From positions 880,334 through 944,333 of the forward strand of contig JAXLYR010000002.1 of assembly GCA_046351325.1 (NCBI GenBank): DNA of 64,000 nucleotides. Direction: 5' to 3'. The number at the start of each line of letters is the position of its first letter. Position 1 is the first letter of the stretch. Both the position numbers and the translations under genes were made by a program. Positions 22,431-55,299 of this stretch are shown here, piece after piece. The DNA comes from Polyangiaceae bacterium. Its GTDB lineage: Bacteria; Myxococcota_A; Polyangia; Polyangiales; Polyangiaceae. Below the pieces are notes generated by a model. That model had not been told where the DNA came from. It searched no databases and saw only the letters and a list, made by a program, of their open reading frames with translations.

Positions 22431-23765
22431 TCAGCCGCGCGTGCGCAGCCCGTGTCGCCAGAGCAGCCGGTAGAAGTGGACACGGTCCACATCGGCGAGC
22501 TGCGCCGCCTGGCTGACGACGCCGTTCGCGCGCGCGAGCACGCGCTCGAGGTACTCGCGTTCGAACGCCGCGACGACGCGCTCGCGCTCCTCGCGGAGGG
22601 TGTTCGACACGTCGATCCCCGTGACCTCGACGCCGTGTGAGTTGCCTGCGGCGTCGCCGTCGACGGGCACCGCGGCCCCGAGCACGAGGGCGCGCTCGAG
22701 GTAGTTGCGGAGCTCGCGCACGTTGCCTGGCCACGCGTGACGAGCGAGCTCGTCGAGGAAAGGCTGCTCGAGCAGCCGATCGGTCGGCAGCTTCACCCGT
22801 TCACGCAGGCTCTCCGAGAGGGCCTCGACGAGCAGACGCAGATCGTCGATGCGCTCGCGCAGCGCCGGCAGACGAACGGGGACGACCGCGAGCCGATAGT
22901 AGAGATCCGAGCGAAATCGCTTCTGGTTGACCTCGGCGCGGAGGTCGCGGTGCGTCGCCGCGACGATGCGAACGTCGACCGGGAGCGGTTTGTTGCCGCC
23001 GACGCGCCGGACCTCGCGACGCTCGAGGACGCGGAGCAGCTTCGGCTGGAGGTCGAGCCCGAGCTCACCGATCTCGTCGATGAAGAGCGTGCCGCCCTGC
23101 GCGAGCTCGAACGCGCCCTCACGCGCGGCGACCGCGCCGGTGAACGAGCCCTTCTCGTGCCCGAAGAGCTCGGCTTCGAAGAGCGTGCTCGGGACGGACG
23201 CGCAGTCGACGACGACGAACGGCCCCGCGCTGCGCTCGCTCGCTGCGTGGACTGCGCGGGCCGCGGCCTCTTTGCCGGTGCCGGTCTCGCCGGTGAGCAG
23301 CACCGTGGCGTCCGTCTTCGCCGCGCGCTCGAGGAGCGCGAACGCGTGGCGCATCGCCGCCGATGCACCGACGAGCTGGCCGAAGCGGGACTCGGGCGAG
23401 AGCGGGAGCTTCGCGACCTCGGACTGCAGGGTGATGTGGATGCGGTCGCGACCGATCGCGAGCGTGCAGCCGAACGGAACGACGGCCTCGCGCACGAGGA
23501 TGCCCGACACGGTGGTCCCGTTGCGGCTGCCGAGATCGCGCACGAGCACGCCGCCGCGCGCGGGCGAGACCTCGCAGTGGAAGCGCGAGACGGCGGTGTC
23601 CGCGAGGCGGAGCTGCGCGCTCTCGGAGGTCCCGATCACCACGCGCTCCTCCGACGACAGGTGAGAGATGCCCTGGTCGGGGCCCTCGGTCACCTGGAGG
23701 ATGAACCGAGGGATCACCCCGGGCTCGTCGACGCTCAGCGTCTCGGTATGGGTCTCTCCAGCCAC
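22431..23765 (-). CDS. Sigma-54-dependent transcriptional activator (EBP) with an N-terminal FHA domain
   Basis: FHA signature (VVIGTSESAQLRLADTAVSRFHCEV...GSRNGTTVSG). AAA+ Walker A GETGTGKE. GAFTGA-like GSFTGA motif. ESELFGHEKGSFTGA. C-terminal Fis-type HTH. Confidence 0.9.
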   Translation of the reverse strand: MAGETHTETLSVDEPGVIPRFILQVTEGPDQGISHLSSEERVVIGTSESAQLRLADTAVSRFHCEVSPARGGVLVRDLGSRNGTTVSGILVREAVVPFGCTLAIGRDRIHITLQSEVAKLPLSPESRFGQLVGASAAMRHAFALLERAAKTDATVLLTGETGTGKEAAARAVHAASERSAGPFVVVDCASVPSTLFEAELFGHEKGSFTGAVAAREGAFELAQGGTLFIDEIGELGLDLQPKLLRVLERREVRRVGGNKPLPVDVRIVAATHRDLRAEVNQKRFRSDLYYRLAVVPVRLPALRERIDDLRLLVEALSESLRERVKLPTDRLLEQPFLDELARHAWPGNVRELRNYLERALVLGAAVPVDGDAAGNSHGVEVTGIDVSNTLREERERVVAAFEREYLERVLARANGVVSQAAQLADVDRVHFYRLLWRHGLRTRG

Positions 23766-23831
23766 GTCGAGACGCTACCACGCGGCGCGCGCAGGGACGC
23801 ATCCGCAAGACGAATCTGCTAGACGGAGTGC

Positions 23832-24923
23832 GTGAGCCGGTCCGACGACGGGCTGACGGGGGAAGAGCCTCTCGCCCCGAACACCGAGACGCTGTCCGGC
23901 TCCGCTTCGGCGCCGGGCGACGAGCTCGCGATCGAGAACATCGACGTCGGCGCCGTCGTGCTCGACAAATACCGCGTCGAGCGACGCATCGGCGGCGGCG
24001 GGATGGCCGACGTCTACGAGGCCACGCACCTCACGCTCGGGACGCGGGTCGCGCTCAAGTTTCCGCTCGGCAGGCTCGCGAGTCCGCGTCGGTTCGCGCG
24101 CATCCTCCGCGAGGCTCAGGTGAGCGCCTCGCTCGATCCCGATCGCGTCGTTCGCGTCCTCGACGTGGCGAGCACCGCGCTCGGAGTCCCCGTCATCGTG
24201 ATGGAGCTGCTCGAGGGCGAGTCGCTCGCCGACAGACTCGCGCGCGAGGGCAAGCTCGCTCCCGCGGTCGCTGCGCGCTGGGTGCGTGAGGCTTGCTTGG
24301 GCCTCGTCGAGGCCCACGCGCGCGGCATCGTGCATCGCGACATCAAGCCGTCGAACCTCTTCGTCGAGCGGCGTCGCGGCGGCGTCGAGCGCCTCAAGCT
24401 CCTCGACTTCGGCGTCGCGAGCATCCGCGCGGCGGCCTCGCAACAAGCGAGCGCGCAGGGCGACTCGGGCGCGGTCGGCTCGCCGCCTTACATGGCGCCC
24501 GAGCAGCTGAACCCCGACGCGCGGTCGCCGCAGGTCGACGCGCGCTGCGATGTATGGGCGCTCGGCGTCACGCTCTTCGAGCTCTGCGCGGGTCGACGCC
24601 CCTTCGTCGGCAAGCCCGTCGCGCTCGTCTCCTCGATCCTGAACGACGCGTCGCCGACGCTCGAGGACGTCGGTGTCTCCGCGCCCGAGCCGTTGAAGCG
24701 CGTGATCGCGCGGTGCCTCGAGAAGGATCGCGAGGAGCGCTTCCGCGACGCGCAGGCGCTCGCAGACGCGCTCGAGGGCTTCGCCGCACCGGCGCCGCTC
24801 TCGTCACGCGTGGCGCCGCCGAGCGCCCGCGTCCCCCGGCGCCGAGCCTTCGCGTGGATCGCGATCGCCGTCGTTGTGACGGCGATCCTCACGACCATCG
24901 TGCTCCTCGGTTGGGCGCGGTAG
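23832..24923 (+). CDS. Ser/Thr protein kinase (Hanks-type) with a C-terminal TM anchor
   Basis: G-loop IGGGGMADVY. VALK lysine. Catalytic loop HRDIKPSNLFV. DFG. APE. C-terminal TM IAIAVVVTAILTTIVLLGW. Divergent from the FHA-EBP gene (66 bp apart). Confidence 0.9.
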   Translation: MSRSDDGLTGEEPLAPNTETLSGSASAPGDELAIENIDVGAVVLDKYRVERRIGGGGMADVYEATHLTLGTRVALKFPLGRLASPRRFARILREAQVSASLDPDRVVRVLDVASTALGVPVIVMELLEGESLADRLAREGKLAPAVAARWVREACLGLVEAHARGIVHRDIKPSNLFVERRRGGVERLKLLDFGVASIRAAASQQASAQGDSGAVGSPPYMAPEQLNPDARSPQVDARCDVWALGVTLFELCAGRRPFVGKPVALVSSILNDASPTLEDVGVSAPEPLKRVIARCLEKDREERFRDAQALADALEGFAAPAPLSSRVAPPSARVPRRRAFAWIAIAVVVTAILTTIVLLGWAR

Positions 24924-28489: not shown

Positions 28490-29743
28490 TTGCTCACGGT
28501 GCGCACGCCTTCGCTCCGCGAGCTCGTCCGCACCGCCGTCGACGATCTCGAGCCTCGAGAGCGCGTGCGCCGCGCACGCGACGCCGCGCCCGACGGTACC
28601 TACCAGAGTGCGGATCTCGTCGCGCTCCTCGATGGAACGGATCGGCTCTTCGCAGAGATCGCGCTCGCGTACGCCGAGGAGTCCTCGCGCGAGGCCGTCG
28701 CGCTCGCGCAAGACAGGTGCTCGCGGGCGAGCGGCGCGGGCTCCATGACCAGCGTCGCACCCACAATCGGCGTCGAAGGCAGCGCCGTCGCGCACGTCGA
28801 GCGCGAGCTCTTCTTGCGGAGCATCCTCGGCGCGACCCCGCCCGCTGGCTTCGTCGAGGCGCTCTCCGCGAGCATGCTCGATCGCGCTGCAGACGTGGGT
28901 GAGGTGCTCTTCGAGCGCGGCGCGCCCGCCGACGCCGTCTACTTCATCGTCGAGGGCGAGCTCGAGATGCAGGCGGCCGACGAGGAAGATCCGCTCGTCT
29001 TCGGACCGAACTCCATCGTGGGCATCCTCGACTGCAACGCGGGCCGGCCGCGCCTGCGCTCGGCCGTCGTGAGCAAGCCGGCGAAGCTCCTCGTCATGCC
29101 GTATCGCGTGTGGCTCGACGCCCTCGAGGACTTCCCGGAGTTCACCTCCACCTCGCGCCGCCTCGTCGCGCGCGGCGTGCACGACATGATGCTCGGGCTC
29201 GACGCTTCGCTCGAGCACGACGGCGGGCTCGGGCTGCTCGATCGGCCGCGACCGCTCGATGCGTCCGTCGCTGCGCGCGTCGCCCGCGGGGATCGCGTCG
29301 CGACGATGTTCGCCCTCGGGCAGAGCCGTCCCTTCGAGGCCTGCACCGTGGACACGCTCGCCGATCTCGCCGAGCGCGTCGCAGTCCTCACGCCCCCTGC
29401 CGGCGAGCTGCTCTTCGGTCCGCAGCTCGGTGGCAACCACCTCTTCATCGTCGTGGCTGGCCGCGTCCACATCGAGCGCCGCTTCGCGCCCATCATCCGC
29501 TTCGAACACCAACCAGGCGACACGCTCCTCGGCGGCGCCGCGCTCTCGGGCGTGCTCTCGGAGTACAGCGCGATCGCCGGCCCGCGCTCTGTCGTGCTCG
29601 CGGTCTCGTTCGCCGACATCGACGACGTGAGCGACGATCACTTCGATCTGTCGCGCTCGCTCTTGCGCTCCACGTCACTCGATCGCGAGCGCCTCATGAC
29701 GAAGGTCGCGGCGCGGCGATCGCGAACGACCGTTACTCCGTGA
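28490..29743 (+). CDS. Tandem cyclic-nucleotide-binding (CAP-effector) domains. Likely the C-terminal continuation of the TLC-HEAT protein.
   Basis: Two cNMP domains (GEVLFERGAPADAVYFIVEGELE...RLRSAVVSKPAKLLV; GELLFGPQLGGNHLFIVVAGRVHIE). The reading frame is open upstream into the HEAT gene. Confidence 0.7.
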   Translation: MLTVRTPSLRELVRTAVDDLEPRERVRRARDAAPDGTYQSADLVALLDGTDRLFAEIALAYAEESSREAVALAQDRCSRASGAGSMTSVAPTIGVEGSAVAHVERELFLRSILGATPPAGFVEALSASMLDRAADVGEVLFERGAPADAVYFIVEGELEMQAADEEDPLVFGPNSIVGILDCNAGRPRLRSAVVSKPAKLLVMPYRVWLDALEDFPEFTSTSRRLVARGVHDMMLGLDASLEHDGGLGLLDRPRPLDASVAARVARGDRVATMFALGQSRPFEACTVDTLADLAERVAVLTPPAGELLFGPQLGGNHLFIVVAGRVHIERRFAPIIRFEHQPGDTLLGGAALSGVLSEYSAIAGPRSVVLAVSFADIDDVSDDHFDLSRSLLRSTSLDRERLMTKVAARRSRTTVTP

Positions 29744-30843
29744 CCTCGACCAGGTTCGACACCGTGGTGCTGCCCCCGCGGTTGTCGCGTACGACGGCCC
29801 AGATCCGGTAGAGCCCGGGCTCGTCGGGTGGCACCCAGACCGTCGACGACGTGACCCGCCCCTTCGCGGAGTCGCTCACGAGCTTGACCTGCGATTGGAA
29901 GTCGCCGCCCGTCGAGAAGTAGCTGACCCACACGGACTCGGAGAGCTGGTTGCCCTGCGTGTCGAACGCGTCGGGGTCGACGCCGGCGACGTCGTCGGGC
30001 ACGTCGACGTCGACATCGAGCGTCGTGCACTCAGCGAACTCGTCCGGTGCGGAGCGGCCGGCCTTCCGGCGATCCTCGACGCTGATGGGGCAGGTGCCGG
30101 CCTCGATGGTCTCGTCGGCGGTGCGGGTCTGACCGTCGAACAGGAGGCCAGCGACGTTCGGGTTACCGTTCTGTCGGCCGCCGTCCTCGAAGACGTAGAC
30201 CTGCGTGTATCCAGGGACGAAGGCATCGGGCCCGAGCTGGCGACCCTCGGCGTCAAGCACCCGGCGGGAAGGGCCTGCGGCGGTGTCCTCTTGCTGGACG
30301 AAGCCGGATCTCACCCGCGCACGCGAGAAAGAAGAAGTACGCGAGGCCGACCTTCTGGGTGCCGTCGTCGGGATCGGGCAGCGAGCTCAGGATGTCTTCG
30401 GGGATCTGCGTCGTGAAGTTGGTGAGCCCCGGGCCCGCGGCGATGAGCCCGTCGGGTGGGATCTGGCCTGTTTGCAGCTGCGCGAAGAGCTCGCCGAGCG
30501 GCCCGTAGCAGCCGTAGTACTGGTCACCTTCAGGGTTGTAACAACCCGCGAGCCAGATGATGGTTACAGGCGTGAAAGTATCGGTCTCGCGCCCGTCGTA
30601 ATAGGTCATCTCGAGCGTGATGTCGTCGCCCGGGGCTGGGTAGGGCTTGTCGATGTCGACCGACAGCACGCGCACGGAGTTGACGAGGCTCTGCGGGTCG
30701 AAGGGCGCCGTGCAACCGCCCGCGCCCGATGCACCGATCACCCCGGCGACGGCCGCCGCGAGCCCGCCGCGCAACCAGAGCGACCGGCGCGAGCGGGCCC
30801 TCGTGGCTACAGGATTGTCAGCAGTCTTGCGGTGGTGTTGCAC
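29733..30843 (-). CDS. Secreted lipoprotein. Two overlapping ORFs (30253-30843 and 29733-30314) that probably form one gene with a frameshift near 30290-30310.
   Basis: N-terminal signal plus lipobox (AGVIGASGAGGCTAPF). The C-terminal part continues in another frame after a ttcttcttt run. Confidence 0.45.
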
Positions 30844-30855
30844 GGTGGCCTCGAC

Positions 30856-33581
30856 TCAGATGTCGGCGCGCAGGCCGAAGCTGGGCAAGATTGGCAGCCC
30901 GCTCACGTAGGAGCGCGACGTGTAGTTGAAGTTGTAGCCGACGCCCTCGGGGTTCTGGTTGTTGTAGACGTTCTGGACGTCGAGGTACGCCGCCATCGAG
31001 AAGTGTTTGAACTGCCACTTCTTGTCGATGCGCAAGGTCGAGCGCGTGGAACGGGGCAACCGCTCGCTGTTGTCGCCGGGGGATGGGCGTGTACGCGCCG
31101 CTCGCCGCGTGGAAGGGCGTTCGTGCGCGTCCGATCAAGTCCGACGCCGTCGGATCGCAAACATTACCGGATCGATCAGGTTGCCCGAGACGGGCCGCAA
31201 AGGCGTGCGCCGACCTCCCAGCCGTGGCCGAGCTGATAGCTGCCGAGGATCGTGAGGATGTGCGTCTGATCGAAGCTCACGAGGTACTCGGGCTCGGACG
31301 GTGAGTTCTGCCGGACGCTGCGCGAGATCGTGTACGCGATCCACCCGAAGAAGCGCTCGTCGGGCTTGTAGCGGAGCAGGAACTCACCGCCGACCGCGTA
31401 GCCGAGGCCTACGTTGTTGTAAGAGAGGCCGGTCGCGGTCGTCTGGCCCGTGACGAGATTGTCAAACTGCTTGACGAAGCCCTCGACCGAGAAGTCGAGG
31501 TTCTGCGTGATCTCCTGCTCGAGGCCGAGGGCGTAGTGGATCGCGCGGTTCGCCTGCGCGGTGCTGGTGCCGAGCGGCTCGACGACCTGCTGGAACTGCG
31601 GCGGCTGGTGGTACATGCCGACGCCGGCCTTCAGCGTGGTGCGCGGGAACTCGTTGTGGAGTCCGAAGCGGCCCGAGATGCGCGGGCTCACGTTGAACTC
31701 GTCGTTCACGCTGAAATAGTCGAGTCGCACGCCGGGGACGATGCGCACCGTGGGCAGCGGCTCGAGCGCGAGCTCGGGGTAGATGGCCGACTGCGTCCCC
31801 GCGACCGACGTCGAGAGCTCGACGAACGGGCGCGTCGAGAACGGCTGGTTCGGTGGCTCGCCGGGGCGCGCGTTCTGCTCGGGCAGGCGCAGGTTGACCT
31901 CGGCCCACGCGCTGAAGATGTCGAAGCCCGCGTTGAGGCGCACGGCCTTGGAGAAGGTGTGCGCGTACTCGAAGCGCGTGTTGAAGCTGAAGACGTTCAG
32001 GTTGAAGAAGAGCGGGCCGAAGCTGAACCCGAGGTCGTCGTGGCCGAACGCCATGACGGCGCGCGCTCGATCGACCGCGGTGATGTCGCGCTCGTAGAGG
32101 ACCTGCAGCCGCTGGAAGGCGGTGTGCAAACCGAGGTTGCCCGAGAGCGCGGGCTCGCCGGGAGAGGGATCCTGGACGAGCAGCTCGAGCGAGTCGTCGC
32201 TGCCGAAGAAGCCGAAGCGGAAGCGCCCTGCCTTCGGTGAGTTGTGCTCGATGAAGAGCTGGTAGTCGTAATAGACGGGGGCTTGCGTGACGCCCGCGCC
32301 TGCGGCCTCGAGGGTGGGGCCGAGCCACGCGTCGACGTAGCTGCGACGACCCGCTGCGAGGAAGGTCCAGCCGTCCTTGATGGGGCCCTCGACCAACGCG
32401 CGGGCGTCGATGAGGTCGGTCTGGATGAGGCCGTGATAGCCGTCGTCCTTGGGGCTCCGCAGGCCGACGTCGACGATGCCGCCCATCACGCGCCCGTACT
32501 CCGCGCCGAAGTTACCGGGGTAAAAGTCGATGCGATCGAGCACCTCGGTCGGCACGACGCTGGAGAGCCCGCCGAAGTGATAGATGAGCGGGACGGGCGT
32601 GCCGTCGATGAACGTCTGCGTGTCCTGCGGACCCGAGCCGCGCACGATGAGCAGGCCCGCGATAGCGGGCGGACGCGCGACGCCGGGCAGGTTCTGCAGC
32701 GAGCGCAGAGCGTCGCCGTTCGTGCCGGGGATGCGATCGATCTCGCGTTTTGATACGGTGCGCTTGACGACTTCGCGCGGGGGGCGCTCGCCGCGCACGA
32801 TGATTTCGACACCACCGCTCGCGATGAAGAGCCTGTATTTCACCTGGTTCGCGACGCCCGCGGTGACCTCCTCGACGAGGTCGCTGTCGCTGTAGCCGGG
32901 CGCGCGGATCGAGACGTCGTAGGTGCCGACCGTCAGCTCACCGAAGTCGAACTCACCAGCCTCACCAGCGACGACGGTGCGCGGCGGCGAGCCGTCGCGC
33001 GGCTTCAGCGTCAGGGTCGCGCCTGCGACGGGGACCTCGGTCGCGGCGCTGTCCTTGGCCTTGCCGGCGTCGTTCGCGGCGGCGACCACGGTGCCGCTCA
33101 ACCCCTGCGTGATCGGCGCTTGCGTGCCCGAGTCCTTCTCCTCGAGGTCGAACGTGAAGCGGTAGAGGATGCGCGCGGGCGTAGCCTTGCCGGACGCGTC
33201 GCGCGCGGGCTCGAACTCGAGCTGCTTGGCGGCAGCGGTCGCGGCCTCCGCGAAGGGATATTGCTTGGGTCCGCCGTCGACGACGGTCACGGTCGAGACC
33301 TTGCCGCGCTCGTCGATCACGAGCTCGAGCACGACCTGAGCCTCGACGCCGGCCTCGACCGCGGCCTGCGGGTGCTCGGGCGGGACGAACTTTACGAGGC
33401 GGGGAGGGACAGGCTGGCCGGGCGGTGGCTGCGTCTCCTCGGCCGGCTTCTTGACCGCGCCGCCCTCTCCGCGCGGCACGCCGTCCTGCGCGTACAGCGC
33501 TCGCGGGAGGGAGAGCGCACCGACGCCGACGAGCGCAACGGTGAGGAGCCTGCGAGCAGGCGAGCTCGGCGAAGACGGCAT
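30856..33581 (-). CDS. Oar-like TonB-dependent outer-membrane receptor with an N-terminal TonB-C-like domain and a CarboxypepD_reg domain. The 3' end appears frameshifted.
   Basis: Signal peptide. TonB C-terminal-like block (VKFVPPEHPQAAVEAGVEAQVVLELVIDERGKVSTVTVV...FEPA). Carboxypeptidase-regulatory-like beta-sandwich (ATLTLKPRDGS...GTYDVSIRAPGY). Plug domain (IPGTNGDALRSLQNLPGV...FIDGTPV) and a long barrel. The typical C-terminal strand (...NFNYTSRSYVSGLPILPSFGLRADI) is in another frame (30856-31059). At least two frame changes between 31060 and 31250. Confidence 0.75.
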
Positions 33582-33594: not shown

Positions 33595-36500
33595 TTACAC
33601 CGGGTCGCGCCTCTTGAGTATGAGACAGAGCACGATCATCAGAAACAAAGTCGCTCCGCCGAGGACGGCGTAGGGCACCCACTGTTGTTCGTAACTGGTG
33701 AAACCCCAGTTGCCCGAGAACGTATCGCCGGCGATCTGGGCCGTCGCACATTGGAACTTCCCCTTGTGGATGAAGTCCGCTTGTTGTGTCGGCTCGTCCG
33801 GCATTTGGAGGTTGATCGACCAAGCAGGGTCGTTCTCCAGCGCGTTCCGCTCTGGGACGATCGCGGCCTCGAAGCCCCAGCGCGCCGGGATGCCTTGGAA
33901 GAGGTATTTCACCGGGGCGGCGACCGAAGACATGGGCACGATGAGCCCGGCGAGGACGACCTGCGGGATGAGCGCGATCGGCGTGAGCGCCATCGCGGCC
34001 TCGCTCGAGGTCACGACGGTCGAGAGCAAGAGGCCGAGCGCCACGGCGAGGAGCGCTGTCGCGACGAGGGCCGCGAGCATTTGTAAGAAGCCGTTCACCC
34101 CGCCGTGCAGGCCGAGGCCGAAGAACGTGATCCCGAGCAGCATCGTGCACTGGAGCACGCAGAAGACCGCGAGCAGGATGTACTTCGAGAAGACGTAGTT
34201 GAGCAGGCTCAGGTTGACCATGCGCTCGCGCAGGTAGATCGCCCGCTCGGCGACGATCTCGCGCGCGGCGTTCGACGTGCCAAACCACACCGCAGACAGC
34301 ACCAACAAGAAGATCGCCGCCGTCTGATCCGACGTCTGCGTCATCGAGTTGAGGATCTCGCCCGTCTTGTCGGCGGGGAGTCCGTCGCCGCGCTTCGAGA
34401 GCTCCTGCAGCGCGCCGAGGCACCAGCCGGGGACGGACTTCTCCTGCTTGCCGAAGACGGCCCACACGAGCGCGCCGATGATCGGCGCCTGCGCGAGCAT
34501 GATGATGATGCCGCTCCGGTCTCGGACCTTGCACTTGAAGTAGCGCGAGAGGAGAAGTCCGAGCTGCCCGCGGGTCTTCGTGCGGGTCGGCGGGATGCCG
34601 CGGTGGCCCTGGCCGGTGCCGATCTCGCGGCGCCCCGAGTACATGCGGCGATAGGTCGCGTTCGTGTCGGTGAAGAACTCCGCGCGCCACTCGGTCGCAG
34701 CGATCTTGCGGGCCTCTCCGCGCGAGGCGTTGGGGTTCTGCTGTTTGAGCCGCTCGAAGATCGGGCGCTCGCGCAAGGCGAGGCACTCGAACATGTCGCG
34801 CGGGTTGTCGACCGGATCGCCCTTCAGCCCGGCCCGCTCGCGGAACGAACCGAAGAAGCGATAGGCGTCCGTCGTGCCGCCGAAGAACGTGGGCACGCCG
34901 CCGTAGCCCATGATGAGGCAGTGCGAGAACTTCTCGAACTCGTCCTTCGCCGGCTGATGGATCGTCATGATGATCGTCTTGCCGGTGGCCTTCGTCAGGT
35001 TGGCGAGCAGCTCGATGAGCGCCGTCGTGTCGTCGGCCGCGAGGCCCGAGGTGGGCTCGTCGAGGAAGAGGATGACCGGGTCGGTCACGAGCTCGAGCGC
35101 GATGTTCACGCGCTTGCGCTGGCCGCCCGAGAGCACCTTCTTCTCGGGCTTACCAATTTGTAGGTTGCGCACGCCGTCGAGGCCGAGGTCCTTCAGCGTC
35201 TGCTCGACGCGCGCGTCGATCTCGTCGTCCGAGTAGTCGGGCGGGAGGCGGAACTTGGCGCTGTAGCGCACGGCCTCGAACACCGTGAGCTCGGGGTGCA
35301 CGAGGTCGTCCTGCGGGACGTAGCCGATGCTGCCGCGCAGCGTGTCGTAGATGTTGTAGAGGTCCTCGCCGTTGATGCGGACGACGCCGCTCGTCGGCGG
35401 GAGGTAGCCGTTCAGCGCGAGCAAGAGCGTCGTCTTGCCGGCGCCCGACGGGCCCATGAGCGCGATCATGTCGCCGGGCAGGGCCTTGAACGAGACGTTG
35501 TCGAGCAGCGTCTTCATCTGCCCGGTGCGATCGCGATCGGGCACCTCGAGGAAGAGGCTCCAAGCCTCGATCTCGTAGAGAGGTTTGCCGGCCCACTTCT
35601 CCTCGGCGTACTCCTCCTGCACGACCTCGGCGGCGCCCGACGCCGAGATCTCGATCTGCAGGGGCATCGGGCCGACGTAGATCTTCTCGGCGCTCGAGAC
35701 CGCGATCTTCTGTCCGGGCGGCGCGCGGTGTCCGCGCACGTACGTGCCGTTCGCGCTGCCTCGATCCTCGATGTAGAGCTGGCCCCCGATCTGGTGGAGC
35801 AGCGCGTGCCGGCTCGAGACCTGCGGGTGCTGGATGACGATGTCGTTGTCCGGCGTGCGGCCGATCGTTCGGACGGGCTTCTGCCCGCCGCCGAAATCCA
35901 AGTGGCCGAGGATGGTCTTGTTCTTCTTCGCTGCGGCGAGGCCGCCACCCATGCTCGCCGCGATGCTCGCACCGAGCGCTGGCGCTTGTTGTGGAGCAGG
36001 CCCCGCCATCTGCGGCGCCATCTGCGGCGCGGGCCCGCCCGGTCGCATCCCAGCCTGCTGCTGCGCCATGTACGCGTTCGTCTCGAGCACCGCGTTCGGC
36101 TGCGCGGCCGCAGCACCACCGAGCGCGACGGTGCCGACGCCTTGCTGAGCACCCATCACGCCCGGCCCCGGCATGGCTTGCGGTGGGCCAGGTGGGATCG
36201 AGCCCTGCGCGGGCTGCTGCGGGACCATCGAAGCGCTGTGACCGCCGGGCTGGCCGTACGCAGGCGCAGCGGGAACGCCCGCCGCGGCCTGCACGATCTG
36301 ACCGAGCAAGCCGACGGGGATCGGCACGGGACCGAACGCGACGATGCCGTTCGGCTCGAGCGGCGTCGGTTGATTCGGGACGATCTTCGCGCGGCTCGTG
36401 CCGACGAACGTGCCGCTCGTGCTGCCGTGATCGATGACCAGCATCCGGTCGACCATCACCGTCGCGTGCTGGCTCGAGACGCTCGGGTGTTGGATGACGA

Positions 36501-36870
36501 GCGAGGACCGGCCAGGGTCACGCCCGATGAGGAGCTGGCCGCGCTGGGCCTGCTGCTGCCCCACCGCCATGACCTGCATGACGATCGCGGGGTGGCTGAG
36601 CGGGACCGTCGCCCCGGCGATGGTGAACGCCGTGCGGAAGTCGAACGGGATCTGCTCGCCCGGGTTCAGCGGGCGCGCTTGCGGCGGGGCGTTCGGGCCG
36701 CCGGGCACCTGCATCGCGGTGTTGGGCCCTGCGGGGATGAAGAGGAGCTTGCCGCCGCCTTGATGGATGATGCGCGCGTGCTCGCCGAGGATCCCCGGTG
36801 CCTTGAGGACGACGTCGCAGTTCGGCGCGCTCCCGATGGAGACGGCCTGCTTTCCGAAACCAGGGATCAT
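33595..36870 (-). CDS. ABC transporter (ABCG/White-type ATPase plus ABC-2 permease) with three N-terminal FHA domains
   Basis: Three FHA signatures (IGSAPNCDVVL...; LLIGRDPGRSSLVIQHPSVSSQHATV...GSTSGTFV; RTIGRTPDNDIVIQHPQVSSRHALL...GSANGTYV). Walker A GPSGAGKTT. Signature LSGGQRKRV. Walker B ILFLDEPTSGL. Six C-terminal TM helices. 1091 aa. Confidence 0.9.
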   Translation of the reverse strand: MIPGFGKQAVSIGSAPNCDVVLKAPGILGEHARIIHQGGGKLLFIPAGPNTAMQVPGGPNAPPQARPLNPGEQIPFDFRTAFTIAGATVPLSHPAIVMQVMAVGQQQAQRGQLLIGRDPGRSSLVIQHPSVSSQHATVMVDRMLVIDHGSTSGTFVGTSRAKIVPNQPTPLEPNGIVAFGPVPIPVGLLGQIVQAAAGVPAAPAYGQPGGHSASMVPQQPAQGSIPPGPPQAMPGPGVMGAQQGVGTVALGGAAAAQPNAVLETNAYMAQQQAGMRPGGPAPQMAPQMAGPAPQQAPALGASIAASMGGGLAAAKKNKTILGHLDFGGGQKPVRTIGRTPDNDIVIQHPQVSSRHALLHQIGGQLYIEDRGSANGTYVRGHRAPPGQKIAVSSAEKIYVGPMPLQIEISASGAAEVVQEEYAEEKWAGKPLYEIEAWSLFLEVPDRDRTGQMKTLLDNVSFKALPGDMIALMGPSGAGKTTLLLALNGYLPPTSGVVRINGEDLYNIYDTLRGSIGYVPQDDLVHPELTVFEAVRYSAKFRLPPDYSDDEIDARVEQTLKDLGLDGVRNLQIGKPEKKVLSGGQRKRVNIALELVTDPVILFLDEPTSGLAADDTTALIELLANLTKATGKTIIMTIHQPAKDEFEKFSHCLIMGYGGVPTFFGGTTDAYRFFGSFRERAGLKGDPVDNPRDMFECLALRERPIFERLKQQNPNASRGEARKIAATEWRAEFFTDTNATYRRMYSGRREIGTGQGHRGIPPTRTKTRGQLGLLLSRYFKCKVRDRSGIIIMLAQAPIIGALVWAVFGKQEKSVPGWCLGALQELSKRGDGLPADKTGEILNSMTQTSDQTAAIFLLVLSAVWFGTSNAAREIVAERAIYLRERMVNLSLLNYVFSKYILLAVFCVLQCTMLLGITFFGLGLHGGVNGFLQMLAALVATALLAVALGLLLSTVVTSSEAAMALTPIALIPQVVLAGLIVPMSSVAAPVKYLFQGIPARWGFEAAIVPERNALENDPAWSINLQMPDEPTQQADFIHKGKFQCATAQIAGDTFSGNWGFTSYEQQWVPYAVLGGATLFLMIVLCLILKRRDPV

Positions 36871-36877
36871 GTGGTGC

Positions 36878-38365
36878 TCATCGAAGGAACAGGGCCCAGA
36901 CGATTGCCAGCGTCACGACCGCGATGGCGAAGCTGATGGCCAGCGCGAGGAAGAGCACGCTGCCCCCCCGGTTGTCGCCGCTGTTCGGCGCGAGCGCTGG
37001 ATCCCCTGCGTACGAGGCCGGGGCTTGAGGAATCGCTGCGGGGCCAGCGGCTTGCGGCGCGCCGACGACTCCCCCTGGGGGGGATGACCCCCCTCCCGGG
37101 GGGGGAGGGGCCTTCGGCGTGCCGCCGGCGGTCGCACCGAACTGGGGGCTCGGCACGTAGCGCACGGACATCGGAGGCAGAGGGAGCGCGCCGACGCCGT
37201 CCATGCGGTAGAGGCCCTGCTGCCCGGTCGCGGGCTGCGGCTGCATCTGGATTTGCGAGCCCGCCCCGGGCATCGCCGCGTGCGGTTGTGCGCCGCGCGG
37301 CCCACCCGCCATGATGTGCGTCCCGCCGAGGCCCTGAGGCGAAGCTGCGAAGGCGCCCTGCGAGGTGCCATCGTGAACCGTCACCGCGGGCGCGCCACCG
37401 ACCGTCGAGCCTGCAGGATCGACCGCCGTGGGCCCGACCCCCCCGCCGTGGACTCCAGCGCCCTGGCCTCCAGCGCCCTGGCCTCCAGCGCCACGCATCG
37501 CCATCGAAGCAGGCGGTTCGTTGACGGTCGTCGTCATCGCGTGCCCCTGCTGTTGGGGGGCCGCGCCGGGGTTCGTGCGTCGCTGCGCTGTCGCGATGAC
37601 GCGCACCATCTGGACCGTGATGTTGTCGTGGCCGCCGCGATCGTTCGCCATGCGAACGAGCTGCTTGCAGGCATGCTCGACGTTGCCCGACGCGAGGGCC
37701 TGTCGCGTCGCGCCCAAGATGTCGCGAGCGAGCGCGAGGTCGGTGAGGCCATCGCTCGACGTGATGAGCAGGTCGCCGGGGAAGAGCTCCATCGGCTCCG
37801 GACGGAGCTCGACGTCGACCTCGGGCTTCATTCCGAGCGCGCGCGTGATCTTGTTCGCGTCGGGGTGACCGATGGCTTGCTCCTCGGTCAAAAAGCCCGC
37901 GTCGATCATCGCTTGAACCATCGAGTGGTCGCGCGTGAGCGGGTAGATTTGACCCGAGCGGATGACGTACGCGCGGCTGTCGCCGACGTGCGCGACGTCG
38001 ACGCCCGCGTCGTGCAGGATCATCGCGACGACGGTCGAACCCGGGCGGACTTTGTTCTCCGGTGGACCACCGAGCTCGTACACGCGACGCCCTGCGACCT
38101 CGACCGCGTGCTTGAGGGCTTGCGCGGGTGAGAGCGTCGCGGCCGCCTTCTCCATCTCCTCGAAGATGGTGGTGATGGCGCGGCGGCTGGCCTCTTGGCC
38201 GCCGTAGTGCCCACCCATCCCGTCGCAGAGCACGACGAGGTGTCCGAAGCGCGTCTGCGAGTAGCCGCAGGAGTCCTCGTTGATCTGCTTGTTCGGATCC
38301 CGGCCAGGGTCGCTCTGTTGCGCGACTTCGATCTTGAGCTCGAGCGGCTGGGGAGGGGAGCTCAT
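36878..38365 (-). CDS. PP2C-family Ser/Thr phosphatase with a Pro/Gly-rich linker and a C-terminal TM anchor
   Basis: PP2C motifs (VLCDGMGGHYGG; GSTVVAMIL...VAHVGDSRAYV; SSDGLTD; DRGGHDNITV). About 200 aa low-complexity G/P/A region. Terminal TM FLALAISFAIAVVTLAIVWALFL. Confidence 0.9.
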   Translation of the reverse strand: MSSPPQPLELKIEVAQQSDPGRDPNKQINEDSCGYSQTRFGHLVVLCDGMGGHYGGQEASRRAITTIFEEMEKAAATLSPAQALKHAVEVAGRRVYELGGPPENKVRPGSTVVAMILHDAGVDVAHVGDSRAYVIRSGQIYPLTRDHSMVQAMIDAGFLTEEQAIGHPDANKITRALGMKPEVDVELRPEPMELFPGDLLITSSDGLTDLALARDILGATRQALASGNVEHACKQLVRMANDRGGHDNITVQMVRVIATAQRRTNPGAAPQQQGHAMTTTVNEPPASMAMRGAGGQGAGGQGAGVHGGGVGPTAVDPAGSTVGGAPAVTVHDGTSQGAFAASPQGLGGTHIMAGGPRGAQPHAAMPGAGSQIQMQPQPATGQQGLYRMDGVGALPLPPMSVRYVPSPQFGATAGGTPKAPPPPGGGSSPPGGVVGAPQAAGPAAIPQAPASYAGDPALAPNSGDNRGGSVLFLALAISFAIAVVTLAIVWALFLR

Positions 38366-38389
38366 GCGGCGATTTTCCCGTTCGACTCG

Positions 38390-40618
38390 TTACTCGAGAG
38401 TGACGGAGAATTCGATGGGCCCGAAGCGGAGCGCAGCTCCGTTGGGGACGGTCGTCCAGATCCCGGGCGGGATCCTCAGTCCGTTCACCGTCGTGCCGTT
38501 GTTCGAATTGTCGTCGCGCACGAAGAGCTGGCCCGCATCGATCTTCAACGAAGCGTGCGTACCCGAGACGCGCGGCTCGGTCAGCATGATTTGGCAGAGC
38601 TGCCCGTCACGGCCGGCTTTCATCTCGGCGCCTGGCAGGACGGTGAAGATGCCCGCTGCGCCCTGCAACGTCGCGCGTTGCACGAACGCCGGGCCAGGGG
38701 CCGCGGGGGCGGGTGCGGGAACCGGTAGCGGAGCCGGCGGCGGCATCGCGGCGCCGGGGCGCGGCGGGGGCGCGGCCTGGTGCTGCTGACTGCTCCGCTT
38801 GCGAGCGCCACCACCACGGAACGCCGCGATGATGAGCAGGATGAACACGAGCCCGCCGAACGCGATCCCCCCGATGAGCCACAGGTTGCGTGGCTTCTGC
38901 TGGGCCTTCACCGTGAGGATCTTGTCGCGTGTGAACGGGCTCGTTCGCTTGCTGACATTGTCGTAAATGATGACGCGGGCCGTGTACGCGTCCTTCTTGC
39001 CGGCGAGGAACTTGTCCTTGTCCGGCATCTCGAACTCGACCATGTCCTCGGAGGCGTCCACGACGGTGCCGCGCATGCCCTGCTCGATGAGGGTCTTCTG
39101 CGCGTTCTTCGCGTCCTCGAAGGACCCGCCCTCGATCGTGGCGGGGACCTCCTGGTTCTTCGGCAGGACGTAGAGCTCTGCGCGATCCTTCTTGCCGGCC
39201 CAACAGAACGAGCCGTAAACGCGCACGCGGCCGCCGGGGTAGATCGGGTTCTTCTCGGCTTCTTTCTGGGTCTTCTCGACGTCGATATCGAGCGGCCACG
39301 TCGAGGGATCGATGCCGACGGGCACGTTCGAGTAGCTGCCGTCGGGCGCGATCGTGAGCTCGGTGTTCTTGAAGAACAGGTTGAAGGACTGCTGCACCGT
39401 CGGCGCGACGCACGACGCCTGCCACTTCACGAGCCACATGTAATCGAAGCGCTCGCGAACGGCCTTCGCGATGTTCTCACCGCGCGAGGCGCCGCCGGCG
39501 CGCACGATCGAGTAGTAGCCGCCGATCTCGGTGTTCGGCAGGCTCTCCATGAACTGCCGCGCGTTCTCGTAGAGCTCCTCGTACTGCTTCGATGGGAACC
39601 AGATCGAGATGATCGGGGTCGGCATCTTCGGCAGGAGGAGGTTCTCCTCGGGGTAGCGGCCCTTCGTCATGTAGTCGCTGAGCAGCTTCGCCGCGGGGCC
39701 AACGGACGCAGCGTCCGTCCCCGCGGTCCCGCTCGAGAGGACCACCATGGCTTGGTGCATCGGCACCTTCACGTTGCCGCCGACGTTGCCGAGCTCTTTG
39801 AAGCCGTCGGTCGCGCCGTTCTGGATGATCTGCCCGAGGGGCCGCACGCGGCCTGCAGCCGCCGAGGTCTTCGCGATCGTGTCGATGTAGCTGAGCGCCG
39901 CGTCCTTGTTGGCCGTCCAGTTGGTGCCAGGGATGGTGCTCACGTCGTTGAAGAACGCGACGTTGAAGATGTCCTGGTCGCGCATCGACGTGATGAAGGC
40001 GCGCGCCACGGCCTTCGCGTCCTCGAAGCGGTTGCCCATCGAGGCCGACGCGTCGATCAGGATGAGCCACGCGGTGCCGACGCCAGGCTCCTTGGCCGCC
40101 GTCGCGTCCTTCCACCGCATCTTCGATACGAACTTGAGCGGGTACTCGGTCGCGGGGTCGAGCTTCACCGTCATGTAGATGTTCCCGTCGGGGAACTTGA
40201 TCGGTGACCAGAGCGCCTGCGGCTTCTCCATCGCGTCCGCGACGCAGTCGAGCTGAGCGTCGGCGCTCTGCATCGCGCAGGCCCCGATCACCGAGCTCTT
40301 CGGCTTGTTCTGCATGATCTCCATCACGGTCGTGAGGACCGGGGCGCCCTCGGTCTGACTCGCGCGGGGATCGATGCGGAGGATGTGAGCCTCGGGCGCG
40401 GCAGCCGCGGGCGCCGCGAGCCCGATGAGCGTGAGGAGCAGCGCGAGCGACGCGCGCGCGCCGATGCGAAGCGCTTGCTCGACCCGTCTAGAGCGGTCGG
40501 CGGGTGCGGTGCTCAAGGCTCGGCGCGCTGCTGTTTGCGACGGGCGCTGGGGCGACGGGCACTGGGCTTCAGCTCGGGTTTGACGTTCGTTGGAGTGGGT
40601 CGAGCGAGCGCTCTGCAT
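38390..40618 (-). CDS. Membrane protein: secreted von Willebrand factor A (vWA) domain, one TM, cytoplasmic Pro-rich linker and C-terminal FHA domain
   Basis: Signal-like SLALLLTLIGLAAPAAAA. MIDAS motif LILIDASASMG. TM LWLIGGIAFGGLVFILLIIAAF. Pro-rich PPPRPGAAMPPPAPLPVPAP. FHA (FTVLPGAEMKAGRDGQLCQIMLTEPRVSGTHASL...NSNNGTTVNG). True start probably downstream of the annotated M. Confidence 0.85.
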   Translation of the reverse strand: MQSARSTHSNERQTRAEAQCPSPQRPSQTAARRALSTAPADRSRRVEQALRIGARASLALLLTLIGLAAPAAAAPEAHILRIDPRASQTEGAPVLTTVMEIMQNKPKSSVIGACAMQSADAQLDCVADAMEKPQALWSPIKFPDGNIYMTVKLDPATEYPLKFVSKMRWKDATAAKEPGVGTAWLILIDASASMGNRFEDAKAVARAFITSMRDQDIFNVAFFNDVSTIPGTNWTANKDAALSYIDTIAKTSAAAGRVRPLGQIIQNGATDGFKELGNVGGNVKVPMHQAMVVLSSGTAGTDAASVGPAAKLLSDYMTKGRYPEENLLLPKMPTPIISIWFPSKQYEELYENARQFMESLPNTEIGGYYSIVRAGGASRGENIAKAVRERFDYMWLVKWQASCVAPTVQQSFNLFFKNTELTIAPDGSYSNVPVGIDPSTWPLDIDVEKTQKEAEKNPIYPGGRVRVYGSFCWAGKKDRAELYVLPKNQEVPATIEGGSFEDAKNAQKTLIEQGMRGTVVDASEDMVEFEMPDKDKFLAGKKDAYTARVIIYDNVSKRTSPFTRDKILTVKAQQKPRNLWLIGGIAFGGLVFILLIIAAFRGGGARKRSSQQHQAAPPPRPGAAMPPPAPLPVPAPAPAAPGPAFVQRATLQGAAGIFTVLPGAEMKAGRDGQLCQIMLTEPRVSGTHASLKIDAGQLFVRDDNSNNGTTVNGLRIPPGIWTTVPNGAALRFGPIEFSVTLE

Positions 40619-40906
40619 GGTGAGCCTCCGGGGGCGTGCGTGCGCCCTCGCTGGGTGCGGAGCGCAGCGCTACAGCGCCCCACGTTGGTTCGACGGTGTC
40701 GCAGGTGTTGAGGGCTCCATCCTTCGGATCCGCTCGAGGACGTCGAGGGTCGAGGGGCTGTGAGCCCCAAAGGAGGTTTTTGAAGCACGACACGACGCGG
40801 GCGGACGACGCACCCGATCGACCGAGCGCCGCCGAAACTCGGCGACCCAAAGCTCCCGATCGAGGTGCAGCGCCCGTAACCCCCGCGCTTCAAAGCATCC
40901 GGGCCT

Positions 40907-42153
40907 TCATGCGCGTGCGGCCACGTTGATGACGATGACGCTGAACCCGCCGAAGCGAATCTTGTCGCCATCGCGCAGCTCACGTCGACCCTGGAAGCCG
41001 ATGGCCTCTTCGTTGTGGAAGGTGCCGTTCGTGGACCCCAGGTCGCTGAGGGTCAACCGGCCCCCTTCAGCGTCGATCGTAGCGTGGTTCGTCGAGGTGG
41101 TGCCGTGGCCGATCGGGACGTCGACCTCCTGCCCAGTCTCCGCGCGACCGATCAAGTTGCGGCCCTGGTAGAGCGGCCAGAACTTGCCGAGCGGATCGTC
41201 CTGAAAGCTGACGAGGAAACCACTGAGCGATCGACGCGGCTTACCAGTGGTGGAAGAGCTCGAGGACTGCGCCCGCGGAGCGTCGAAGCCCCCGTTTGGC
41301 GGTGGGGGAGCGAACCCCCCCCCGGGGGGGGGCCCACCCATCCCGGGCATCCCCGGCGGCGGCCCCATGCCCATACCCGGCGGTCCACCCATGCCTGGCG
41401 GCCCCATGCCTGGCGGCCCACCCATGCCTGGCGGACCGGCGTTCGGAAACGCGGTCGGCCCGAACTGATCGTGACCACCAGGAGGCGGGAACGGAGGCGG
41501 CCCCATGCCTGGCGGACCCATGCCTGGCGGACCATGCCTGGCGGACCCATGTCCATCCCTGGCGGGCCACCCATGCCTTGCGGACCCATGCCTGGCGGGC
41601 CACCATGCCTTGCGGACCCATGCCTGGCGGGCCACCATCCCGGGCGGCCCCGGCCACACCGGCGGGCCCATGCCTGGAGGCGCCCGGGGTAACCACCCTG
41701 GTCGAAGCCGAAGCCTGGCGGGCCACCCATGCCTTGCGGACCCATGCCTGGTGGGCCCATCCCCGGACCCATGCCCGGCGGACCACCCATGCCTTGCGGC
41801 CCCATGCCTGGCGGACCGCCCATGCCCGGCGGCCCCATGCCTGGCGGCCCCATGCCCGGCGGCCCCATGCCCGGTCCCATCCCCGGACCCATGCCTGGCG
41901 GGCCACCCATCCCGGGCGGGGGACCGAAATTCTGATCGAACCCGGGGGGCCCAAAGCCACCCCCGGGGGGAGGGGGAGGCGGAAAACCTGGAGGACTGCC
42001 ATACCCAGGAGGTCCGAACCCGCCTGGGGGACCAGGAGGAGGCGGCGGGCCCATGCCTGGAGGAGGTGGCGGCCCGCCTTGCAACGGTGAAGCACACACA
42101 GCGCAGAACTTGTCAGTCGGAGCGTTCGGAGCGCCGCAGCGAGGGCAGATCAT
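40907..42153 (-). CDS. Zinc-ribbon / Pro-Gly-Met repeat / C-terminal FHA-domain protein. The repeat region shows inconsistent reading frames.
   Basis: N-terminal MICPRCGAPNAPTDKFCAVCASPL zinc-ribbon. Long GPPGMGP-type low-complexity repeat (41400-41950). C-terminal FHA (NLIGRAETGQEVDVPIGHGTTSTNHATI...GSTNGTF) in the frame of ORF 40907-42097. The N-terminus is in the frame of ORF 41152-42153, with switches inside the repeat. Confidence 0.6.
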
Positions 42154-42760: not shown

Positions 42761-42855
42761 GGCATCCTCAAAAGATCAGGGAAACGGGCGCGGCATTATG
42801 CATGGGCGGAAATGCCTGTCAACGCCTGGGAAAGCTCGGCGTCGACGGGCGGCCC

Positions 42856-54406: not shown

Positions 54407-55299
54407 ACCGCGGGCTGCGCGCCGTCGCGGCCGGCGCGCCTCGCGCCCGAAAGCTGGGTGCTCAGCGCGCGCGCCTCGCGGGCGCGGACGCGTGCGGCGG
54501 CGAGCTCTTGTCGGCTCACGCCGAGCCGCTTCATGACGGGGAGGTAGATGCGCTGGATGAACATGTCGCGATCGACGCCTGTCTCCCGAACGTGGGCGAG
54601 GCGCTCGTCATAATCCGGCAGCGATCCGGCGCCAGGGCTTTCGAAGGTCGCGAGCACCTCGGCGAGATCCTCGAGCGCGGCCTCGCGGTTCTCACCGAGG
54701 AGCGCGTGCGTCGCGCGCTCGAAGAACTTGGCGTGCGCGTTCTCGTCCCGCGCGAGAAAATCGAAGATGCTGCGCAGGCACTCGTCGCCCTCGCGCATCG
54801 CGGCCTCACGGTGGCGCGCGTAGGTGAGGAACGTCGCGAGCTCCTGGAGGAGCGCGAAGAAGAGCATGCGTCGCGCTCCGCCGAGCGGCGTGCGCGCGCC
54901 GTCGACCGAGAACGGTGGTCGCCACGGCGCCTCGAGGACGCGAGCCTCGAGCGAGGCGAGCGCTGCGCGATCGCGGGCCCCGGAGGCGACGAGCCAGTCG
55001 CCGAGGGCCTGATGGTGGCGGACCTTCTCGGCCGCCCAGCTCGGCACGTAGCGAGCCGCCGCGGGCGCCGCACGCAGGAGCGTGAGCCCGACGCTGACGT
55101 AGTCGGGCAGGCCGCTCTCGATCGCGAAGAAGGTCTCGACCGCGAGGACGAGGCCCGCGCTCGGGCGCTTCGTCACGCGATGCCACGGGAGATCCTCGAG
55201 GCTCCAACGGCGCTCGACGTCCGCGCGCGCCAGCGCGGCGCGCGTGAGCTCCTCGAGCCGCCCGTGAGCGTCGGTCGATGCGAGCGAGGCAGGAGACAC
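54391..55299 (-). CDS. Ferritin-like di-iron carboxylate protein (acyl-ACP desaturase / R2-like)
   Basis: Two E...(D/E)ExxH-type blocks (LQELATFLTYARHREAAMREGDE and FLARDENAHAKFFERA). About 300 aa. Located between the ACP and KAS genes. Confidence 0.5.
   Translation of the reverse strand: MSPASLASTDAHGRLEELTRAALARADVERRWSLEDLPWHRVTKRPSAGLVLAVETFFAIESGLPDYVSVGLTLLRAAPAAARYVPSWAAEKVRHHQALGDWLVASGARDRAALASLEARVLEAPWRPPFSVDGARTPLGGARRMLFFALLQELATFLTYARHREAAMREGDECLRSIFDFLARDENAHAKFFERATHALLGENREAALEDLAEVLATFESPGAGSLPDYDERLAHVRETGVDRDMFIQRIYLPVMKRLGVSRQELAAARVRAREARALSTQLSGARRAGRDGAQPAVWSAS

Follow-up and report, generated by a model that had tools for sequence, protein, structure and literature searches.

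A 64-kb window of a Polyangiaceae metagenome-assembled genome (MAG; G+C ~65–73%; all coordinates below are window positions) carries a minus-strand cluster of genes for an ABCG-type transporter with three FHA domains, a PP2C phosphatase, a membrane protein with a periplasmic von Willebrand factor A (vWA) module and a cytoplasmic FHA domain, and a protein with a zinc ribbon (ZnR) and an FHA domain. We favour, at about even confidence, the reading that this is a core-genome operon specific to Polyangiaceae, in which an ABCG-type exporter is controlled by Ser/Thr phosphorylation without a kinase of its own. The cluster is a new arrangement of known parts and not a new kind of system, and the cassette proteins are all held, or able to be held, at the inner membrane. 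Neither PADLOC nor NCBIfam assigned the cluster to a system, PADLOC gave no match to an anti-phage defence family, and we found no paper on this gene cluster.

Domain organisation of the four core genes

Three of the genes are intact minus-strand open reading frames (ORFs): 33595–36870 (transporter, 1091 residues), 36878–38365 (PP2C, 495 residues) and 38390–40618 (vWA-FHA protein, 742 residues). The intergenic spacing is operon-like, with 7 nt between the ABC and PP2C genes, 24 nt between the PP2C and vWA genes, and 13 nt between the ABC gene and that of a TonB-dependent transporter (TBDT) downstream of it; a longer gap of 288 nt precedes the vWA gene. A first-pass annotation of this DNA had described four consecutive genes; the order is real, but the fourth gene (40907–42153) is not a single ORF, as described below. 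Domain searches bore out all of its domain assignments (three FHA domains with ABC2, PP2C, vWA and zinc ribbon). Pfam also agrees with its total of five FHA domains, three in the transporter and one each in the vWA and ZnR proteins. The motifs of the phosphothreonine (pThr) pocket (GR, SxxH and NG) are canonical in four of the five: the second and third FHA domains of the transporter, the FHA domain of the vWA protein and that of the ZnR protein.

The gene at 33595–36870 (minus strand) encodes an ABCG-type half-transporter, in which an N-terminal regulatory region is followed by a nucleotide-binding domain and an ABC-2 transmembrane domain with six transmembrane helices. This architecture is supported by Pfam (FHA ×3, 125 bits; ABC_tran, 116 bits; ABC2_membrane, 85 bits), by PDB sequence matches, the best of which are ABCG/PDR proteins (E 1e-46 to 1e-40), and by hydropathy, which places six hydrophobic helices after the nucleotide-binding domain. 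An extracellular loop is assigned to residues 979–1066. The ATPase motifs read from the sequence (Walker A/B, signature and H-loop) are intact. The regulatory region (35674–36843, minus strand) has three FHA stretches in Pfam: FHA1 (36601–36843, residues ~10–90), FHA2 (36316–36534, residues ~113–185) and FHA3 (35674–35868, residues 335–399). FHA2 and FHA3 are canonical. The pocket of FHA1 is degenerate, with GS replacing GR and the Ser of SxxH gone, and this state is fixed in 44/44 orthologues. All six orthologues examined, the distant clade included, also have three FHA stretches. Pfam and the orthologues agree with the proposal that the protein resembles Mycobacterium tuberculosis Rv1747 but has three FHA domains instead of two. 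The linker between FHA2 and FHA3 is 130 residues long, of low complexity, and contains three Thr residues in the window protein.

The PP2C Ser/Thr phosphatase (36878–38365, minus strand) consists of a catalytic domain (residues ~25–255), a ~210-residue linker rich in Gly, Ala, Pro and Thr, and a tail anchor. Its Pfam matches (PP2C_2, 43.5 bits, and PP2C) are above cut-off, and the NCBIfam Stp1/IreP model scores 188 bits, under its equivalog cut-off of 230. The metal-binding motifs are complete (NED, DGMGG, GDSR, SDGL and DNIT). The phosphatase had been described as membrane-tethered, and it does end in one C-terminal hydrophobic helix (residues 470–488, 36902–36958, minus strand, by hydropathy), which is kept in 43 of 52 orthologues. 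Judged by these motifs, the protein is apparently an active eraser, tail-anchored in the membrane.

The PP2C linker is hypervariable, both in sequence and in length (roughly 100–600 residues). Within it, one Thr is invariant in 51/51 orthologues, 17–30 residues past DNIT (column 35 of the MAFFT alignment, 100% Thr). In the window protein this residue is Thr280 (T280; codon 37526–37528, minus strand), in the context TTTVNE; other contexts are SLTIAH, HTIPQ and TTVPD, where the invariant Thr is the one that precedes Val or Ile and the +3 position is polar or acidic. A second linker motif, ETxxMT, follows the invariant Thr and is partly conserved (~60% of orthologues). On this pattern of conservation, T280 is the leading candidate phospho-acceptor and a possible docking site for FHA domains.

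The third gene (38390–40618, minus strand) encodes a bitopic protein with a signal peptide, a ~500-residue periplasmic module, one transmembrane helix, a Pro-rich linker and a cytoplasmic canonical FHA domain. The signal-peptide-like segment reads ...LAAPAAAAPEAHIL; a 100% identical NCBI protein from a Polyangiaceae MAG has its start 34 codons further downstream and is 708 residues long. The transmembrane helix (residues 581–599, 38822–38878, minus strand, hydropathy 2.7) is followed by the cytoplasmic sequence RGGGARKR, and the FHA domain (residues 668–733, 38420–38617, minus strand, Pfam FHA 44.8 bits) has its GR, SGTH and SNNGT motifs intact. The periplasmic module is made up of an N-terminal beta domain, a vWA fold (Rossmann-like; residues ~178–403, 39410–40087, minus strand) and C-terminal beta domains, and contains invariant Cys pairs. 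Pfam VWA_2 and VWA matches are slightly below their curated cut-offs; the fold is nevertheless that of a vWA domain (dinucleotide-binding-like).

The first-pass annotation had proposed an extracellular metal-ion-dependent adhesion site (MIDAS) domain facing out and an FHA domain facing the cytoplasm. The vWA fold is periplasmic and the FHA domain cytoplasmic, and the metal site is not conserved in the family. The DASAS of the window protein (residues 189–193) fits DxSxS. Among 25 diverse sequences and 96 close relatives, the first Asp alone is invariant (consensus DAASx), LS(S/N)G stands where beta4 would have ‘TDG’, and a conserved metal site (DxSxS...T...D) was not found family-wide. A functional MIDAS across the family is doubtful on these alignments. 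The family itself is small: when 1.84 billion cluster representatives were searched exhaustively, 184 matched at E ≤ 1e-3. Its architecture of periplasmic module, transmembrane helix and FHA domain persists to 30% identity. In one Polyangiaceae MAG (locus L063, 8911–14707), a paralogue of the vWA module without an FHA domain lies between a flagellin gene (Flagellin_N/C) and nuoA–D; a flagellin is unexpected for the family Polyangiaceae.

The vWA-FHA protein had also been called a topological inverse of the T6SS (type VI secretion system) protein PpkA. In PpkA, the kinase domain is in the cytoplasm and the C-terminal domain in the periplasm (PMC12607579). Since the non-kinase domain of PpkA is also periplasmic, both proteins place a sensor-like domain in that compartment, and the vWA-FHA protein is not an inverse of PpkA. 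It has a PpkA-like layout, with an FHA reader in place of the kinase writer and with the order along the chain reversed.

The fourth gene (gene 4; 40907–42153, minus strand) encodes the ZnR-FHA protein, with an N-terminal zinc ribbon (CPRCG...CAVC), a Pro/Gly/Met-rich linker built from PPGMG units, and a canonical FHA domain at its C-terminus. At 1247 nt, the length of the region is not divisible by 3, and one ORF cannot span it. Its two domains are in different frames, with Zn_Ribbon_1 (27.6 bits) in ORF 41152–42153 and FHA (53.8 bits) in ORF 40907–42097. The repeat region contains four frame switches (0>2>1>0>2), each a –1 frameshift, and adding one G at each of ~41684, 41638, 41606 and 41535 gives an open frame of 416 codons. 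Three of the four sites read ATGGT where neighbouring repeat units have ATGGGT. The repaired protein of 416 residues is clean, with no stops and no other damage. Orthologues are intact, for example that of Minicystis (446 residues), which has the same MICPRCGAP... start.

The linker of the repaired protein is 265 residues long and contains 37% Pro, 38% Gly and 12% Met, together with one Thr and one Ser. Docking of FHA domains on pThr sites in the Pro/Gly-rich linker had been suggested as a possibility; this is unlikely, as the linker has hardly any Ser or Thr to offer. We considered the PPGMG repeats as ligands for GYF domains, which bind a PPG-hydrophobic motif, and rejected this, as the motif count ranges from 0 to 17 among orthologues. 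ZnR-FHA orthologues of Sorangium, Minicystis, Chondromyces and 24 other loci have a mid-linker motif, CxxGH...(S/A)FCxEGGH, which may be a second metal-binding knuckle. It is missing from the window protein and its nearest relatives.

Conservation of the gene neighbourhood

Loss of synteny in related genomes had been named beforehand as an outcome that would refute the cassette. This refutation clearly failed, as synteny proved to be strong. Genomes (one per species) were scanned for the periplasmic vWA module with an alignment of closer relatives, the 25-sequence diverse alignment being too divergent. The module was found in 254 genomes, and the counts below cover the best 80, all from Polyangiaceae/Polyangia. 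Neighbours of the vWA gene were counted by tblastn of the parts, and the denominators are the loci with enough flank. Upstream of the vWA gene, 58/71 loci have the ZnR-FHA gene; downstream of it, 51/64 have the PP2C gene. An ABC gene is found within 7.5 kb in 44/59 loci, and rplS is nearby in 56/65.

The gene order in Sorangium So ce26, Minicystis rosea and Chondromyces apiculatus is rpmH-rnpA-yidD-yidC-jag-rplS, followed by the genes for the ZnR-FHA protein, the vWA-FHA protein, PP2C, the ABC transporter with three FHA domains, a barrel protein with TonB_C, CarboxypepD_reg and Plug domains, and a protein of ~370 residues. The neighbours in the window match those of these three loci, with rplS/jag/yidC on one side and ABC/TBDT genes on the other. 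In Sorangium cellulosum So ce56, the orthologous locus is at 3.385–3.407 Mb of NC_010162.1. Scans for promoters and terminators did not rise above background, apart from one promoter-like site upstream of rplS. This sigma-70-like match (11/12; 42795–42822, minus strand), directly upstream of rplS, is the strongest, and the sole strong one between 29 and 43 kb. Transcription may run from rplS into the cassette, since the only strong promoter match precedes rplS.

The cassette had been described as lacking a kinase gene, and we found none in it, nor in the cassette loci of Sorangium So ce26, M. rosea and C. apiculatus. Only 7/80 relatives have any Hanks kinase gene in the ±10 kb around the vWA gene. 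The Hanks kinase noted ~10 kb from the cassette in the window is real (23823–24923, plus strand, Pkinase 150 bits). Its gene is divergent to that of an FHA-sigma54 enhancer-binding protein (22431–23774, minus strand; FHA, Sigma54_activat and HTH_8), and because of this divergent pairing the kinase more likely serves this regulator.

The outer-membrane extension

Two further genes follow the transporter gene on the minus strand. The first (30859–33581) encodes an outer-membrane protein like a TBDT, with a signal peptide, a TonB_C-like domain (43.5 bits), CarboxypepD_reg (39.4 bits), Plug (36.0 bits) and a 22-strand barrel (TonB_dep_Rec, 51.7 bits). The combination of a CarboxypepD_reg extension, Plug and TonB_dep_Rec barrel places it in the Oar subclass of TBDTs, and TonB_C is additional to this set. 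In NCBIfam, the TonB_C-like N-terminus is closest to that of MxcH, the myxochelin receptor. The main ORF spans 31176–33581 and continues to ~30859 in another frame; a tblastn search with the Sorangium orthologue splits near 31200, from frame –3 to –2, so that the last ~115 residues are shifted. The second gene (29733–30855) encodes a lipoprotein of ~370 residues with three beta-sandwich domains and no known family, in which orthologues have a lipobox (...SGC). This gene is frameshifted between ~30254 and 30313. Orthologues of both genes are intact.

Both genes are syntenic with the cassette in the clade of the window, and a TBDT gene is linked to the vWA gene in 31/58 loci overall. In a distant clade, unrelated genes come after the ABC gene. 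As linkage is modular and the distant clade lacks the extension, we take the four genes of the first-pass annotation to be a widely conserved core and the barrel and lipoprotein genes to be a clade-specific extension. The idea of a four-gene cassette as a unit holds for this core; the unit comprises six genes in the window’s clade and is modular elsewhere.

Other features of the window

A secreted protein with a long collagen-like tract of GPx triplet repeats is encoded at 8341–9516 (plus strand). It is followed by a planctomycete-type gene pair at 9569–12615 (plus strand), which encodes a PSD3/PSD5/PSD4/PSCyt3/PSD2 protein (DUF1587/1595/1592/1588/1585) and then a DUF1552 (HXXSHH) protein. Lipid-modification genes are found at 53123–58344 (minus strand) and 16713–21623 (plus strand), and include those for a beta-ketoacyl synthase, an acyl-ACP-type desaturase, a cyclopropane-fatty-acid (CMAS) synthase and an AMP-binding enzyme. 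The second set of ORFs resembling beta-ketoacyl synthases, at 16.7–21.6 kb, has long domain-free tails, which may conceal more frameshifts.

Relation to known systems

The cluster misses defining features of every system with which we compared it, though each of its modules has precedents. The transporter is like Rv1747 of M. tuberculosis, which works with PknF and PstP, in that both are ABC-2/ABCG half-transporters with N-terminal FHA domains split by a disordered linker of ~100–130 residues. In Rv1747, pThr in the linker is bound by the protein’s own FHA domains, which leads to clustering and activation, and PstP has been proposed to reset the transporter (PMC8339232). The cassette transporter differs in having three FHA domains, the first of them degenerate, and in that T319 is the one conserved Thr of its linker that might serve as a phospho-acceptor. 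The pknF gene is in the operon of Rv1747, whereas the cassette transporter gene adjoins a phosphatase gene and not a kinase gene. Also unlike Rv1747, it belongs to a Gram-negative envelope and has linked periplasmic and outer-membrane partners.

The presence of vWA, PP2C, zinc ribbon and FHA readers in one operon recalls the TerY-P triad (PMC10542128) and the Deinococcus cluster DRA0331–0334, which encodes vWA, Ser/Thr protein kinase, FHA and PP2C-FHA proteins (bioRxiv 10.64898/2026.01.23.701218). In those systems, however, the vWA proteins are cytoplasmic, and what defines the triad is a kinase, which is fused to the zinc ribbon in TerY-P. The cassette lacks a kinase, its zinc ribbon is joined to FHA, and its vWA domain is periplasmic. 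We rejected a TerY-P or defence reading, as there is no kinase, the vWA domain is periplasmic and below the Pfam cut-offs, and PADLOC gave no matches. As in archaeal ArnA (zinc finger-FHA) and ArnB (vWA), a gene for a zinc-finger-FHA protein adjoins a vWA gene. ArnB, in contrast, is cytoplasmic and is bound by ArnA via its phosphorylated C-terminal helix bundle. A contact of this type is impossible here, because vWA and the ZnR-FHA protein are on opposite sides of the membrane. Finally, the outer-membrane barrel is like Oar of Myxococcus xanthus and its subclass of TBDTs in combining a CarboxypepD_reg extension, Plug and barrel (PMC6434023), and Oar shows that secretion can be a role of such barrels. 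Unlike Oar, it has the TonB_C domain and is cassette-linked in only about half of the genomes.

A proposed mechanism

What could such an operon do? From the domains, motifs, topology, fold and synteny described above we infer the interactions, the direction of regulation and the cargo in the following scheme. One or more Hanks kinases encoded in trans would phosphorylate Thr sites, of which the best candidate is the T280-type Thr in the juxta-catalytic linker of PP2C; the regulatory region of the transporter itself could offer alternative or additional sites. FHA2 and FHA3 of the transporter, together with the FHA domains of the vWA protein and the ZnR scaffold, would bind the pThr sites. This multivalent assembly at the membrane would cluster the transporter into an active state, as for Rv1747. 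The co-recruited, tethered PP2C would then dephosphorylate the sites, dismantle the assembly and reset the system. The periplasmic vWA module would couple the cytoplasmic assembly to a periplasmic partner, and in the window’s clade the Oar-class barrel and lipoprotein would probably form an outer-membrane leg for an exported or sensed envelope component. For an ABC-2/ABCG exporter, the cargo would most likely be an envelope lipid, glycolipid or polymer. The ZnR-FHA, vWA-FHA and PP2C genes mirror the actinobacterial fhaA-fhaB-pstP triad, and by analogy with FhaA the ZnR protein would act as a scaffold through its long disordered linker (PMC11898655). The earlier description of the cassette as ‘trans-envelope sensing and export gated by pThr’ is a reasonable inference.

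A more elaborate version, which we regard as quite unlikely, takes all six genes as an undescribed trans-envelope export route of Polyangiaceae. It would comprise an ABCG pump in the inner membrane, a non-MIDAS vWA adaptor in the periplasm carried on a transmembrane FHA protein, and a TonB_C-bearing Oar-class barrel with its lipoprotein at the outer membrane. Kinases in trans would switch it on through multivalent FHA-pThr contacts and the disordered Pro/Gly scaffold, possibly as a membrane condensate, and switching it off would fall to the tail-anchored PP2C, recruited through its invariant linker Thr.

Several observations weigh against a phosphorylation-controlled exporter operon. Among 44 orthologues of the transporter, T319 is the sole conserved Thr in the linker between the FHA domains; it is near FHA3 and may belong to the FHA3 fold. 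Since no other Thr is kept there, the self-linker mechanism of Rv1747 is not directly transferable. Linkage is also modular: in eight loci the ZnR-FHA, vWA-FHA and PP2C genes are present and the ABC gene is not nearby, PP2C is missing from four, and nine are stand-alone orphan paralogues of the vWA module, among them the one beside the flagellin gene. In the more distant clade, the ABC gene is not followed by the TBDT and lipoprotein genes, which may be an independent uptake system. There are six frameshifts in total, in 3/6 genes (gene 4, TBDT and lipoprotein), and if these are real the cluster may be non-functional in this organism.

Alternative explanations

The modular linkage fits a different reading, in which the ZnR-FHA, membrane-FHA and membrane-PP2C proteins are a myxobacterial counterpart of FhaA, FhaB and PstP that regulates envelope growth or division by scaffolding cell-wall or outer-membrane biogenesis, with the ABCG transporter as one client or a mere neighbour. 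The triad without a nearby ABC gene in eight loci is as expected for this. In actinobacteria, the fhaA-fhaB(fipA)-pstP operon (Rv0020c–Rv0018c) encodes an FHA scaffold with a long linker (~300 residues in FhaA), a membrane FHA protein and a membrane PP2C, and the cassette has the same order and class of architecture (PMC11898655; PMC6554272). The transmembrane-FHA part of the vWA protein weakly matches FhaB/FipA and the FHA domain of gene 4 matches that of Rv0020c, and the site by yidC/jag/rplS, kept in most loci, belongs to the core genome. These FHA similarities are generic, however (E 1e-7 to 1e-4), and the proteins differ: gene 4 starts with a zinc ribbon and not the N-terminal domain of FhaA, the membrane FHA protein bears a 500-residue periplasmic vWA module, and PP2C is tail-anchored without an extracellular domain. 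No linked genes of the rodA, pbpA, pknA or pknB type were found in the window or the Sorangium, Minicystis and Chondromyces loci. In addition, the ABC gene is linked in most loci with enough flank and its product itself has three FHA domains. We regard this reading as a possibility of some substance, if on balance an unlikely one.

A second reading concerns this genome alone. If gene 4, the TBDT gene and the lipoprotein gene are true pseudogenes, the window holds a decaying remnant and no complete system. The number of frameshifts is consistent with this, and so is the state of the remaining sequence: Pfam searches of 30 other window ORFs gave no split domains, and more than 20 had full-length matches, which led us to reject a uniformly error-ridden assembly. 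Against decay, orthologues are intact in dozens of genomes, the ABC, PP2C and vWA-FHA genes are intact here, and the repaired frame of gene 4 is clean. The losses of single G residues in a repeated ATGGGT context in gene 4 are typical of long-read consensus errors, and the source is a 1.14-Mb MAG contig. We lean towards such errors rather than real decay, because the gene 4 lesions share one sequence context and have left no other damage, and consider a remnant rather unlikely.

A third reading likens the cluster to the T6SS system TagQRST-PpkA-PppA-Fha1, so that the barrel, lipoprotein, ABC transporter and vWA module would sense an envelope signal and the output would be the pThr-dependent assembly of another machine, not export. 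The parallel holds part by part, with a set that spans the envelope and includes an outer-membrane protein and lipoprotein, an inner-membrane ABC protein, a bitopic protein whose one domain is periplasmic, a PP2C phosphatase and an FHA scaffold (PMC12607579), and vWA is on the same side of the membrane as the periplasmic domain of PpkA. In the T6SS pathway, scaffolds with an FHA domain and disordered regions are reported to cluster or condense. The differences are that the bitopic protein has FHA in place of a kinase domain and that TagTS is a LolCDE-like complex, whereas the cassette encodes a true, full ABCG exporter with an intact ATPase. We rejected membership of the T6SS threonine phosphorylation pathway itself, as neither a kinase domain nor any T6SS family turned up in the cluster loci, the scanned window ORFs or their neighbours. 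No output machine could be identified nearby, and surveillance of this kind is improbable.

Lastly, Polyangiaceae have very many FHA and kinase genes, and a sixth FHA domain (in the FHA-sigma54 activator) and the kinase lie 10–15 kb away, but the synteny counts show that the adjacency is not due to chance, and the recurrence of this order, at ~50–67% protein identity, in Sorangium, Minicystis, Chondromyces, Polyangium and Byssovorax as well as many MAGs refutes a fortuitous grouping of FHA and PP2C genes in a genome rich in Ser/Thr signalling, to which we give almost no credence.

Implications

If the cluster is a phosphorylation-controlled exporter operon, as we favour, it would extend the Rv1747 paradigm, so far mycobacterial, to Gram-negative myxobacteria, and join it to a triad like FhaA/FhaB/PstP. 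The invariant linker Thr of PP2C is a concrete prediction of a docking site, and both Sorangium and Chondromyces, which make natural products, can be cultured. If FHA domains bind pThr in this linker, the eraser sits inside the complex that it resets. Bacterial Ser/Thr signalling is usually approached from the kinase outward. An operon of readers (FHA) and an eraser (PP2C) built on a transporter would be a case in which a kinase-rich organism channels many kinases onto one membrane machine.

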